Virus record (IMG/VR): IMGVR_UViG_3300028805_002025
Coordinates: 160,001 to 224,000 of that record
Length of the DNA stretch: 64,000 nucleotides
From: a virus
Lineage: Duplodnaviria; Caudoviricetes
Reading direction: 5' to 3' (one strand)
The translations under genes were made by a program, and so were the position numbers. How positions within the stretch are numbered: the first letter of the stretch is position 1; each line of letters begins with the position of its first letter. The notes under the pieces are model-generated. The model did not search any database and was not told where the DNA came from. It saw only the letters and a list, made by a program, of their open reading frames with translations. Of this stretch, positions 10,416 through 13,851 are shown piece after piece.

Positions 10416-11151
10416 AGCTTACGCCATCGAAATTGATTTGAAGCATTATCTGACTAGGGTCTGTCTTTGTATATTCGAGTGAACTTCTGAAATAACCTTC
10501 TATCTCACAACCCACATACTTTTCCTTGTATACGATAGCACCAGTTCGGTCAATACGCTTGATTGTCATGGTGAACTTTCTTCCAACGTTACCCTCTATG
10601 ACAGACAGAATAGGGTATCTACTTCCAAAGATAGTAGTAATGAAATCGTTTATCGCAATTTCAATCTTATTCTTGCCAAGGAAAGTAACAAACTGTACCA
10701 TATTGCTTGGAATATTAAGGTCGTCAAGCTCTACAACGAATCCAGAAGTAAACAGTATATCATGGATATTTGTATTCACGATAGCCGCATCAAGGTTAAC
10801 TAGTTTCGCCTCATTACTCTTGGCAATATTGTCATACAAATCATAGTTATGGTGACAAGTACAGGTTGGAGAACCACAACAGGTATTGTCTTTCTTGATA
10901 TTATCAAACATACTTGTACTTGCGGTCTTCGTAGGCTGTTCATTCTCTTTCCTTAGTTCTTCAATTTCCTTAAGAGTTTCATTTATTTCAGCCTTCATCA
11001 TATCCAATGTTTTTCCAGGAACATTGTTTTTCCTAAACATTTCGTGAAGAGTATTCATCAACATCTTATGTTCGTTAATCTTCATTTCCAATCTTTTCTC
11101 TACACTTAACATATTCTTAAATCTTTTACGCTTTATTATTGTCATTGTCAA
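10399..11151 (-). CDS. Protein with N-terminal coiled coil and C-terminal tail-tube-like domain
   Basis: C-terminus (IKRIDRTGAIVYKEKYVGC...SLEYTKTDPSQIMLQINFD) aligns by eye with the tube protein (LEMLDPTGVVVSKWILKN...ELDYSNDDLATISINLRFD). Confidence 0.6.
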   Translation of the reverse strand: MTMTIIKRKRFKNMLSVEKRLEMKINEHKMLMNTLHEMFRKNNVPGKTLDMMKAEINETLKEIEELRKENEQPTKTASTSMFDNIKKDNTCCGSPTCTCHHNYDLYDNIAKSNEAKLVNLDAAIVNTNIHDILFTSGFVVELDDLNIPSNMVQFVTFLGKNKIEIAINDFITTIFGSRYPILSVIEGNVGRKFTMTIKRIDRTGAIVYKEKYVGCEIEGYFRSSLEYTKTDPSQIMLQINFDGVSYETAN

Positions 11152-12274
11152 AATCTAATATCTTTTCAATTATCGGGGACATGTCATAGTACTTGTATTC
11201 TCCTAAACGTCCTCCAAAAATCACATTATTCTCCTTCTCAGCAAGCATGCGATACTGCTCTGCCAACAAGTTATTTCGCTTATCATTTATTGTATAATAT
11301 CGTTCCATTCCTTCCTTATATTCAGATGGTAACTCCCTTGTAATAACAGTTACAGAACTGTCATATATTTTTTGTCCAAACATCTCGAAATGCTTATGCT
11401 CAATAATCCTAGTATAAGGCGTTTCAGAATCAGTATAATTCATCACGGCATTTCCTTGATAGTTAGGTGTATCTAGCACCTTCTCCTCGAAAGATACTGT
11501 ACGCCATTCGAGTTTTCCAAGCCTGTAATCGAAATATTCATCAATAGCACCAGTATACACTATCTTGTCAGCAATGGATTCCCAATACTTGCGGTTCTCT
11601 AAGAAATCTACATTAACCCTGGTTTCAATGCCGTCCAACAATCCATCGATAAGCTTATTGTAACCACCAATTGGTATACCTTGGTACAGGTCATTGAAAT
11701 AGTTGTTATCGTAAACGAAACGGACAGGAAGACGCTTGATAATGAAAGCTGGCAGTTCTGTACATTTACGTCCCCACTGCTTTTCAGTATAGCCTTTGAT
11801 TAATGTTTCATAGATATCCCTACCTATCAGCATCAAAGCTTGCTCCTCCAGGTTACGAGGTTCTGTCACACCCTCTGCCTTCATAGCACTTACAGCTTCA
11901 GACTTCTGTTCTTCTATCTTGGCTTTCGCCTCTTCTGGAGTCAATACGCCCCACATCTGATAGAAGGTGTTCATGTTAAAAGGCAGGTTATACCGCTTAC
12001 CCTTATAGTTGGCAATAGGAGAATTCGTAAAACGATTGAACTCCACTATGGAATTTACGAAATCCCATACCTTTTTGTTGGATGTGTGGAATATATGAGG
12101 ACCATATTTGTGAACATTGATACCATCTATATTCTCACAATAGAGATTCCCACCCAAATTGGGGCGTTTGTCTATCACCAGGCATTTTTTACCGTTTTGT
12201 TTTGCCTTGAATGCAAACATAGAACCAAACAATCCAGCACCAACTATTAGATAATCGTACTTATCATTAGCCAC
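11126..12274 (-). CDS. glf: UDP-galactopyranose mutase
   Basis: YDYLIVGAGLFG FAD motif, HKYGPHIFHT, GYTEKQWG, YFND.YQGIP, TRIIEHKHF, GRLGEYKYYDM. Confidence 0.97.
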   Translation of the reverse strand: MANDKYDYLIVGAGLFGSMFAFKAKQNGKKCLVIDKRPNLGGNLYCENIDGINVHKYGPHIFHTSNKKVWDFVNSIVEFNRFTNSPIANYKGKRYNLPFNMNTFYQMWGVLTPEEAKAKIEEQKSEAVSAMKAEGVTEPRNLEEQALMLIGRDIYETLIKGYTEKQWGRKCTELPAFIIKRLPVRFVYDNNYFNDLYQGIPIGGYNKLIDGLLDGIETRVNVDFLENRKYWESIADKIVYTGAIDEYFDYRLGKLEWRTVSFEEKVLDTPNYQGNAVMNYTDSETPYTRIIEHKHFEMFGQKIYDSSVTVITRELPSEYKEGMERYYTINDKRNNLLAEQYRMLAEKENNVIFGGRLGEYKYYDMSPIIEKILDFDNDNNKA

Positions 12275-13851
12275 TATATAGTATTGTTTTTTAAATTATA
12301 CTTATTTTCCGTTATCTTAATTTCTACTGGTGTCACTTTATTAAAGTGTCTCAAGAAGAAAACGTTTGTCAATCTTTCAGCAAGGAAGCCACCTATCCTC
12401 TTTTGATAATCAAATGTACCATTCTGAGGCATATCCTTTATATCCTTAAAATATTTATCCTGGTTGTTCATAACTCTTGCCTTTATGTCATTTCCAATGA
12501 TGTCTATATATTCATCAAGGACACCTTTTATAAACCTCACATACTCTTTAAAGTCGTCTCTACGCATAATGAACATGTTGTAAATGAACATTATATTTCC
12601 ATTTAAAAAGTATTCCATAGCATTGTAATAATCATTAAACTTTTCCTTTACAATTTTTTCAACAATCTCAAGGTCTTCAATGTTATGGAAGTAAGCGTAC
12701 TGCTCTCTAACGTTTCCGTCAAAACGTACTGGTCTGACAGTTATGGCATCACTCTCTTTAAACACCTCATTCATGTTTGGTATATCATCCATGAACGAAA
12801 AATATCTCCTATAATGGCAGAACCCGACATAAGGTGGAAGGTCTTCGTATTCCGCTACGTTGTAATATGTGAGTATTTCTGAATAGAAATTGTCATCAAG
12901 TCCCTTATATTCCTTTATCTTGTTATTTCTATTATCGACAATCTGATATGCTTTATTATGAACTGGAGGGTCAAAATCCTTATGAGTGCATATAAATATC
13001 TTCAAGTCTTCTTTTGTAGGGTTATCATCCAAGCTAAAACCTTTCTTCTCAAGATATTCCTTCTTCTCTGGTGTTATATCGTTGACTTTGAAGAACTCAT
13101 TAACTGGTATAATCTTCATATAATCGGCGTGTGTTCTGTCACCAAGACCTCTCACCATCTTACCTTCTATGAATTCTTGAATGGTTTTTGTTGTAAAGTG
13201 CTTCAGATATGCATTTTCAAACGTATATGGCGTAAATGGAGAACTGTTATTAATAGCAACACCATCAGCATTACATATCTTTTTTGTAATGATTGGAACG
13301 TGTGGATTCCATCCTATCTCAAAGTCATCAGCCTTACACTTCACAATGGACTTTGTATGGTTATTCTGTGGAAAATTGAAACCAACCTTCTTGTCGTAAT
13401 CCATAGGAGTCGTAAGTCTCTCGTTGACTGGTCTTCCATCATTCTCAATCATATTGTTATCAGTGTAAATCATCCAGTTTACCTTCACACAGTCGAAGTC
13501 ACCCTTTGTATTAACCCACTCAAGATACTCCTGTATGGTAGAATGGTTCTTCAGCACCAGAAACTCGTCAAAGTCGAAGAACGCAACCCAGTCATAGTCA
13601 CTGGCGTACTTGTATCTGACATAGCAATCAGAATAAGCCCTCATCTGTACATTCTCCATGTTCCTGTATGGTATTACCTCCACCAGCTTCTCATCTATAT
13701 ACGGCTGAAGCACTTCCTCGAAGTGTTCCTCACCTTCGTGGTTATTGTCAAATATGGTAATTCTATCAAAGCCAAGTTTTTTGTACCATTCGACAAATTC
13801 AACTGCATACTGGTTCTCCAGCCTTCCGATACAACACAATACTACTTTCAT
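12274..13851 (-). CDS. Two-domain glycosyltransferase: N-terminal GT-A (GT2/GT92-like) plus C-terminal DUF4422
   Basis: N-domain: EFVEWY..LGFD.I.IFDNN, WVAFFDFDEF (DxD), KSIV, HFTTKT.QEF. C-domain: KIFICTHK, YSE, YVGFCHYRRYF, YNMFIM, R..GFLAERL. Start reassigned to MKVVLCC. Confidence 0.88.
   Translation of the reverse strand: MKVVLCCIGRLENQYAVEFVEWYKKLGFDRITIFDNNHEGEEHFEEVLQPYIDEKLVEVIPYRNMENVQMRAYSDCYVRYKYASDYDWVAFFDFDEFLVLKNHSTIQEYLEWVNTKGDFDCVKVNWMIYTDNNMIENDGRPVNERLTTPMDYDKKVGFNFPQNNHTKSIVKCKADDFEIGWNPHVPIITKKICNADGVAINNSSPFTPYTFENAYLKHFTTKTIQEFIEGKMVRGLGDRTHADYMKIIPVNEFFKVNDITPEKKEYLEKKGFSLDDNPTKEDLKIFICTHKDFDPPVHNKAYQIVDNRNNKIKEYKGLDDNFYSEILTYYNVAEYEDLPPYVGFCHYRRYFSFMDDIPNMNEVFKESDAITVRPVRFDGNVREQYAYFHNIEDLEIVEKIVKEKFNDYYNAMEYFLNGNIMFIYNMFIMRRDDFKEYVRFIKGVLDEYIDIIGNDIKARVMNNQDKYFKDIKDMPQNGTFDYQKRIGGFLAERLTNVFFLRHFNKVTPVEIKITENKYNLKNNTI

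Follow-up and report, generated by a model that had tools for sequence, protein, structure and literature searches.

Virion glycosylation has been demonstrated in few phages, where it alters antibody recognition. Here, two adjoining genes that may serve such a modification are described in a T4-like jumbo myovirus: glf, which encodes a predicted UDP-galactopyranose mutase, and a gene for a two-domain glycosyltransferase. Both lie on the minus strand of a 64,000-nucleotide stretch of DNA (hereafter the window), which covers positions 160001-224000 of the viral record IMGVR_UViG_3300028805_002025 (241,681 bp, estimated completeness 75%). Close relatives of this phage come from cattle-rumen and other gut metagenomes. 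The best-supported reading, to which we give a probability of about one half, is O-glycosylation of virion proteins with a glycan that contains galactofuranose (Galf). Neither a Galf-bearing virion nor a pairing of Glyco_transf_92 with phages turned up in a literature search.

Among known systems, the proposed one would work most like the virion glycosylation of mycobacteriophages, in which capsid and tail-tube proteins receive sugars from phage-encoded transferases (Freeman et al. 2023, as cited in PMC12619734 and PMC12582341). As far as the citing papers describe it, Che8, Corndog and their relatives use phage-encoded cytoplasmic glycosyltransferases and no export machinery. This has been shown there and is thought to apply here, where a phage-encoded soluble transferase lies co-oriented among the structural genes of a tail operon and would be expressed at the same time. 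By the same accounts, the mycobacteriophage glycans sit on C-terminal tails of capsid or tail-tube subunits, in siphoviruses of Actinobacteria, whereas the candidate sites here are internal tetrapeptides in baseplate and fibre proteins of T4-like jumbo myoviruses with probable Bacteroidota hosts. The enzyme types (GT92 and GT111) and a dedicated supply of UDP-galactofuranose (UDP-Galf) also set the present case apart. A WbbM-like GT111 enzyme, a candidate internal sequon, other target proteins and the dedicated donor supply would be what distinguishes it from the mycobacteriophage case.

DUF4422 is the GT111 galactofuranosyltransferase domain, and WbbM is its only characterised member (PMC12269835). 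WbbM is the bifunctional D-galactan I polymerase of Klebsiella pneumoniae O2a (6u4b; Clarke et al. 2020, as cited in PMC12269835) and, as outlined there, resembles the present transferase in being a soluble protein with a GT111 domain, a second GT-A domain and a Glf-made donor. The WbbM-type fusion, with GT111 N-terminal and a GT8 partner, is not what is found here, where a GT92-like domain precedes a C-terminal GT111 domain. In the same outline, WbbM lengthens a lipid-linked O-antigen that is exported by an ABC transporter, and no such transporter lies near the genes here. The pamABC locus of Kingella kingae (PamA GT111, PamB Glf, PamC GT2) shows the same adjacency of a GT111 gene and a mutase gene, but is a bacterial lipopolysaccharide (LPS) galactan locus in which PamA is single-domain and was left without a defined role (PMC12269835). 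In Rhizobium phage RL38J1 and other Pootjesviridae, a phage Glf is likewise proposed to feed a phage glycosyltransferase pathway, but the mutase gene lies beside genes for a thymidylate-synthase-like 5-hydroxy-dCMP synthase, nucleotide kinases and DNA glycosyltransferases (PMC13326640). Here, in contrast, glf stands in a tail operon beside the GT92-GT111 enzyme, and no base-hydroxylating enzyme was found in the searched DNA, the Tet/JBP part of that search being uninformative. The plant GT92 galactan synthase GalS1 (8d3t) shares the fold and the DxD-type metal site of the N-terminal domain; its identity is only about 14%, and the plant enzymes are Golgi membrane proteins.

The mutase, the transferase and the sugar donor

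The two genes and the transferase domains are located as follows.

12274-13851, minus strand: two-domain glycosyltransferase, 525 amino acids (aa), from Pfam, homologues and AlphaFold2
13189-13833, minus strand: N-terminal GT92-like GT-A domain, residues ~7-221 (PF01697, 72.6 bits against a cut-off of 23)
12352-13002, minus strand: C-terminal DUF4422/GT111-like domain, residues ~284-500 (PF14393, 91.4 bits against a cut-off of 25)
11126-12274, minus strand: glf, UDP-galactopyranose mutase, 382 aa, from Pfam GLF and solved mutases

On re-reading of the open reading frames (ORFs), the coordinates and description that the original prediction had given for both minus-strand ORFs were found to be correct. 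The genes are co-oriented and overlap by one nucleotide, the G of the transferase stop TAG (12276-12274) being the G of the GTG start codon of glf. Membrane segments are absent from both enzymes, as had been claimed: with a 19-residue window and a Kyte-Doolittle mean of 1.6 as cut-off, the maximal means were 0.95 and 1.05.

The GLF family (PF03275) matched Glf with 258 bits against a cut-off of 26.3, over positions 2-203 of the 203 of the profile. Near the N-terminus, residues 10-74 were recognised as an FAD/NAD Rossmann domain (NAD_binding_8, 72 bits), and the translation contains VGAGLFG, a motif of the GxGxxG type. Residues 6-372 align to residues 2-356 of the E. coli mutase 1i8t (E 3.6e-141); 4mo2 was matched with E 2.1e-138, and with eleven further distinct mutase sequences the matches came to 13 in all. 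By these alignments Glf is an intact, untruncated UDP-galactopyranose mutase, predicted to interconvert UDP-galactopyranose and UDP-Galf.

The longest ORF of the transferase spans 12274-13935, and its likely start is the ATG at 13851, which is preceded by AGGAAAG and agrees with the length of the homologues (also about 525 aa). The DUF4422 match covers positions 1-217 of the 220 of the PF14393 profile. In an alignment of 25 homologues with identities down to 38%, the invariant residues were DNN (35-37), D93-x-D95-E96, YSE (323-325), HYRR (346-349), NMF (425-427) and ER (492-493). The profile of this alignment matched Klebsiella WbbM (6u4b) with E 5.9e-18 in the DUF4422 half, in two stretches of WbbM (residues 26-111 and 169-244), and FY(S/C)E, HYRR and NMF are common to both proteins. 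It also matched GalS1 over the DxD region, where D93, D95 and E96 align to DVDE of 8d3t. The AlphaFold2 model shows two domains, with a mean predicted local distance difference test score of 89. Foldseek searches with it returned WbbM 6u4b as top match (E 1e-12, probability 1.00) and GalS1 8d3z/8d3t with E 3e-8. Pfam, profile and structure searches thus bear out the assignment of the C-terminal half to the WbbM-type GT111 family, and the N-terminal half is GT92-like, with GalS1 as its best match by profile and structure.

The donor of the DUF4422 domain is probably UDP-Galf, and the main reason for taking it so is that glf repeatedly adjoins DUF4422 genes. This immediate adjacency was found in five phage records, in five arrangements: a fused GT92-DUF4422 gene followed by glf in the window; a split GT92, DUF4422 and glf (G011); glf, DUF4422 and GT92-DUF4422 within a larger glycan cluster (G012); a GT92-GT11-DUF4422 fusion followed by glf (G013); and DUF4422 followed by glf (G028). 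Several bacterial loci fetched with glf also hold a weak DUF4422-like gene alongside, and the GT111/mutase pairing of Kingella pamAB is the same. The use of glf as a tracker of the motif described below was rejected, as two unrelated jumbo phages (G008, 394 kb, L028; G009, 300 kb, L087) carry glf without DUF4422 and without enrichment. Their Glf presumably serves another transferase family or target, and the Glf-bearing ORF of G009, at about 685 aa, may be fused to another domain.

Two further observations concern these records. The G012 cluster (L039 3709-9999) contains, upstream of glf, a 916-aa fusion of GT92, pyruvyltransferase and GT2, and a TupA-like ATP-grasp protein; it also encodes TOD1/MUCI70-like, phosphoribosyltransferase-like and Galactosyl_T-like proteins and lies directly before baseplate wedge genes. 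Its gene content implies a more complex glycan in that lineage. In the 212-kb record G010, glf lies about 38 kb from a DUF4422 match (G010:C1:100005-100688; L338) with two in-frame TAG codons, which may reflect TAG recoding or a pseudogene.

A tetrapeptide motif on virion proteins

The evidence for virion proteins as acceptors comes from the tetrapeptide Ser-[Gly/Ala]-x-Thr, whose enrichment was calculated as the observed number of sites over the number in within-protein shuffles. The genome of the present phage contains 151 sites, against about 43 in shuffles, with a concentration in the baseplate and fibre proteins, one of which has 16 in 1047 aa and another 14 in 724 aa. The candidate acceptors in the window include the following.

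37341-39515, minus strand: fibre-region protein, 724 aa; 14 sites, 1.65 expected
43813-46005, minus strand: protein of 730 aa; 9 sites, 1.7 expected (orthologues have 6, 16 and 7)
48893-50797, minus strand: protein of 634 aa; 8 sites, 0.6 expected
29382-32168, minus strand: tail protein phrog_13768, 928 aa; 7 sites, 1.2 expected

The densest case seen was a 1302-aa protein of a relative with 42 sites (G002:C1:212176-216084).

Across nine whole records, the ratio was 3.5, 3.3, 3.7 and 4.2 in the four GT92/DUF4422-positive records and 1.2-1.3 in the four DUF4422-negative ones, two of which carry glf; permuted control motifs were flat. The ninth record, G003, has an intermediate ratio of 1.75 and a DUF4422 remnant of ~150 aa (G003:C1:29728-30171; L340 1378-1842) with one TAG and one TAA inside the match, which looks like a recent loss. 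The enrichment is specific to the motif: SGxT reached 3.9-fold and SAxT 3.1-fold, compared with 1.7-fold for TGxT and TAxT and about 1.25-fold for S[GA]xS. Among orthologous proteins, the density per 1000 aa is 3.7-11 sites in the positive genomes, against 0.4-0.5 in the complete negatives G005 and G006 and 1.4 in G004, a negative that is 59% complete. Since orthologues in negative genomes have so few sites, the motif is not structurally required by these folds.

The comparison was extended to 50 records of IMG/VR, retrieved by an alignment-based query with a conserved baseplate protein. The baseplate-locus ratio was 2.2-12.9 in 19/19 DUF4422-positive records and 1.15-1.9 in 5/5 DUF4422-negative records of at least 75% completeness. 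Counted over every near-complete negative relative, seven in number, the range was likewise 1.15-1.9. The ratios of incomplete DUF4422-negative records had a bimodal distribution, which is to be expected if the missing part often contains the gene. In total, DUF4422 presence and motif enrichment co-distribute perfectly among 28 informative relatives, and DUF4422 is the only component present in every motif-rich near-complete genome (13/13 of those at least 80% complete). In FastTree and LG+G4 trees, the negatives fall into a single clade, apart from G020. This complete genome (312 kb, terminal repeats present) is nested in the positive clade next to the subclade of the window and has lost both the DUF4422 gene and the motif enrichment. 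G003 stands beside these two concordant events as a partial case.

An unbiased presence/absence screen of the nine genomes, for genes found in the positives and missing from all negatives, returned only the transferase and a TOD1-like protein. The latter is a TOD1/MUCI70-domain protein of 511 aa (63 bits) at record positions 80928-82463 (L481:6928-8463), outside the window, about 79 kb before its start and about 90 kb from the transferase. Its homologues adjoin DUF4422 genes in G012 and G013. As a universal co-factor this protein was rejected: it occurs only in motif-rich records and is missing from seven of them. GT92 was rejected as a constant partner as well, as six DUF4422-positive complete genomes have no GT92 match; in relatives, the partner domain of DUF4422 can be absent, split off or of another family.

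In the mechanism proposed, the phage would make its soluble bifunctional glycosyltransferase late in infection, and O-glycosylation would take place in the cytoplasm, before or during assembly. The adjacent Glf would turn host UDP-galactopyranose into UDP-Galf and so free the phage from dependence on a host that makes UDP-Galf. The C-terminal GT111 (DUF4422) domain would transfer Galf from this donor, and the N-terminal GT92-like domain would presumably follow by adding a second sugar, for which a hexopyranose such as galactose is the most likely candidate. The most likely acceptors are the phage's own baseplate and fibre proteins that face outwards, modified at Ser-[Gly/Ala]-x-Thr, and the TOD1/MUCI70-domain glycosyltransferase-like protein may take part. 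Shielding, stability and adhesion to mucus or host glycans are possible roles of such a coat. The original prediction had envisaged a self-contained cytoplasmic pathway; donor synthesis, two transferase domains and soluble proteins remain part of the picture, but the pathway is probably not self-contained, in that the TOD1/MUCI70-domain gene probably belongs to the system.

Origin of glf and the variable slot in the tail module

The genes stand in a tail module whose features, with the junctions of the glf insertion, are listed below.

17881-21354, minus strand: sheath
16739-17731, minus strand: homing endonuclease
14039-14527, minus strand: tail tube, gp19-like, 162 aa (Pfam Phage_T4_gp19, 28.2 bits; phrog_4542, E 3.7e-27)
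13880-13915, minus strand: terminator-like hairpin and T-run (16-pair stem, consensus scan)
12260-12274, minus strand: 5' junction of the glf insertion (window GTGGCTAATGATAAG; relatives ATGGCAATAATAAAG)
11131-11145, minus strand: 3' junction of the glf insertion, ATGACAATAATAAAG, where the 248-aa gene actually starts
10399-11145 (ATG 11145), minus strand: 248-aa protein, the slot partner, with a coiled coil at the N-terminus and a C-terminus weakly like that of the tube
9930-10415, minus strand: HNH/DUF559-like protein, 161 aa, next to the 248-aa gene
After the 161-aa gene and before the baseplate hub, minus strand: 205-aa protein
7621-8919, minus strand: baseplate hub
3168-6005, minus strand: tape measure

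No match to this part of the tail module (window positions 9000-16000) was found among GenBank phages by megablast. The tube protein is 94-100% identical to the tubes of relatives. The hairpin lies between the tube stop codon and the ribosome-binding site of the transferase and would probably reduce the read-through that reaches the enzyme genes from the abundant tube transcript. Enzyme levels would then be below the tube level, because the hairpin leaves only read-through transcript.

At the position of glf, the window was compared with five loci from four relatives (tube identity 98-100% for L002, L088, L089 and L003, and 94% for L004/L005). In all of these, the transferase gene is directly followed by the homologue of the 248-aa gene, without glf, and the two genes overlap by one nucleotide in L002, L003, L088 and L089 and are 4 nucleotides apart in L004/L005. 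Flanking structural proteins match those of the window at 98-100% identity, but identity is only 82-85% for the transferase and 87-90% for the 248-aa protein. The stop codon of the L002 transferase overlaps ATGGCAATAATAAAG, with which the next gene begins. In the window, GTGGCTAATGATAAG is a diverged copy of the first 15 nucleotides of the downstream gene and now forms the start of glf. The start of the 248-aa gene overlaps the last 20 nucleotides of glf in another frame, and tblastn aligns the 248-aa protein from ATG 11145 onwards. Because the start copies GTGGCTAATGATAAG and ATGACAATAATAAAG flank it, glf must have been inserted exactly at the gene boundary with a short duplication, and tight translational coupling was retained on both sides. 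Judged by this comparison, glf is a recent, precise and lineage-specific insertion.

It seems that glf came from a gut bacterium. At 71-76% identity, the nearest Glf proteins are encoded in genomes of Segatella albensis, Prevotella, Bacteroides, Fibrobacter and Paludibacteraceae. In a tree of 159 sequences, the window Glf is sister to the copy of a Prevotella metagenome-assembled genome (SH-like support 96) and nests among Prevotella and other gut Bacteroidota, with the Glf proteins of other phage records elsewhere. Repeated captures of host glf, at least two of them independent and with five records in all, would free a Galf coat from the host's supply of UDP-Galf. G028 is the only other one of 30 related phage records that has the gene. 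The two genes do not form an old co-inherited module, as glf is recent and missing at this position from all close relatives examined. Sporadic presence as a copy of a host gene, an outcome that the original prediction had counted against itself, is what was observed for glf, which is Prevotella-like and was found in 1 of 30 records.

The transferase itself is part of a widespread family. It has 302 homologues among the 5.8 billion proteins searched, most with the same two domains and many on contigs of 300-430 kb, and the DUF4422 family is widespread in this group of 300-430 kb phages. A tblastn search with the transferase returned only half-length matches, in Lak megaphages and short gut contigs. 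DUF4422 genes adjoin the fetched baseplate locus in G012, G037, G040, G046, G047 and G057, lie inside it in G056 and are about 5 kb from it in G043. The transferase was also considered as a conserved, fixed gene of the tail locus, and this was rejected. Across 160 loci retrieved by means of the tube protein, the slot separating the tube gene from the 248-aa gene held a full transferase, a single-domain version, nothing or other cargo, which makes it an insertion hot spot. In the complete 412-kb relative G002, the slot is empty and GT92 and DUF4422 genes lie side by side elsewhere. The cargo in L004 7091-9900, L176, L177, L255, L180 and L264 comprises DUF723/DUF4379 homing endonucleases, an AAA ATPase, half-length transferases or nothing.

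The 248-aa gene follows the slot in all clade members. Its protein has no Pfam or PHROG match and evolves fast, with 87-90% identity where the tube has 99-100%, and 29% where the tube has 94%. Its C-terminus resembles that of the tube at 27% over 56 aa, with E 0.03 in a single comparison. The placement of the enzymes between the tube gene and a "tube paralog" is therefore right for the tube gene, while the weakness of this similarity leaves the paralogy of the 248-aa protein plausible at most. The 161-aa HNH/DUF559-like protein was kept in every relative of the tail locus (38-98% identity, six genomes compared), a degree of conservation not usual in free homing endonucleases; L003 has it split into two ORFs.

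Competing explanations and significance

Virion decoration as the target draws its support from the co-distribution of DUF4422 and the motif in the 28 relatives. Several points weigh against it. The acceptor assignment is a correlation of motif and enzyme, and the only characterised GT111 enzyme acts on a lipid-linked glycan and not on protein (PMC12269835). A sign test cannot reach significance, because there are just two phylogenetically independent co-transitions. The status of a record as "negative" depends on CheckV completeness estimates and a simple ORF caller, and in genomes beyond the nine screened, other clade-specific genes could fit equally well. Most DUF4422-positive relatives have no glf; the donor would therefore come from the host, or would not always be UDP-Galf. 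The provirus-labelled record G013 carries GT92-GT11-DUF4422 and glf and is enriched just 1.47-fold, so the module can exist without the motif. Finally, the position in the tail locus is weak evidence alone, because the slot also houses homing endonucleases and other cargo.

An enzyme of this kind might instead remodel the host envelope, polymerising or capping a galactan on a lipid-linked host intermediate and so altering LPS, capsule or another surface glycan of a Bacteroidota cell. WbbM is just such a two-domain polymerase and likewise has no membrane segments (PMC12269835). The capture of glf from a host-type polysaccharide gene pool, the DUF4422-like neighbours in bacterial glf loci and the module without enrichment in provirus record G013, as lysogenic conversion would predict, all fit this explanation. 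A block to superinfection, or altered lysis or adsorption traps, could be the gain, with glf securing the donor. We consider envelope remodelling rather unlikely, as it leaves the match between DUF4422 and the tetrapeptide in virion proteins unexplained and the genes stand in late structural operons of large, apparently lytic myoviruses; moreover, no initiating transferase, flippase, ABC exporter or ligase was found in their neighbourhood, to which the search applied. It is also unlikely that the transferase and glf are passengers, that is, morons in an insertion hot spot whose correlation with the motif reflects shared ancestry. The variable slot, the sporadic glf and the small number of independent co-transitions would suit passengers. 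However, the family is kept in all of the motif-rich genomes of at least 80% completeness, at several positions and fused or split, and its catalytic-type residues do not vary among homologues down to 38% identity. Functional coupling also fits G020, a nested genome that has lost both gene and motif, and G003, with its decaying remnant, and the glf insertion keeps translational coupling on both sides.

A role in DNA hypermodification, in which Galf-containing glycans on a hydroxylated base would evade restriction, is very improbable. The RL38J1 mutase has been proposed to feed glycosylation of 5-hydroxycytosine (PMC13326640), and multi-sugar DNA glycans made by phage transferases are on record (Pyle et al. 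2024, as cited in PMC12619734). Among relatives, the complete G002 encodes a thymidylate-synthase homologue; such a homologue is present in the positive G002 and the negative G006 and absent from the complete negative G005, so it does not track the transferase. In the present phage, no thymidylate-synthase-like gene was found in the searched 75% of the genome, a result limited by the missing quarter, and a Tet/JBP search found none but was uninformative, its control giving no signal either. The transferase lies in structural and not in nucleotide-metabolism modules, and DNA modification, too, would leave the motif correlation unexplained. The homologue of G002 (G002:C1:30388-31590) matches in two pieces (profile 1-155 and 160-266) with ~58 codons between them in one 407-aa frame, which suggests that it holds an insertion.

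Glycosylation of the virion with a Galf-containing glycan remains the best-supported reading. A more far-reaching version of it is put forward only tentatively: DUF4422/GT111 enzymes may write a Ser-[Gly/Ala]-x-Thr O-glycosylation sequon and give the particles of T4-like jumbo phages a Galf-containing coat. With the same reserve, the phage group concerned could be large and globally distributed, with the coat on baseplates and fibres. The proposal is a concrete one, with an enzyme family (DUF4422/GT111), a probable donor (UDP-Galf) and named candidate acceptors, and it can be tested without culturing the phage. The glf junction is, in addition, a clean case of a host metabolic gene seamlessly placed in a phage structural operon.

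Mammals lack Galf, which innate lectins such as intelectin-1 recognise. If the more far-reaching version is true, a GT111 enzyme would act on protein for the first time, a sequon for phage virion glycosylation would be defined for the first time, and these would be the first virus particles decorated with Galf. The GT111 family, so far represented by a single O-antigen polymerase, would be extended to protein substrates. A coat of Galf, on phages that abound in gut and rumen, would matter to the interactions between phage, host and animal.

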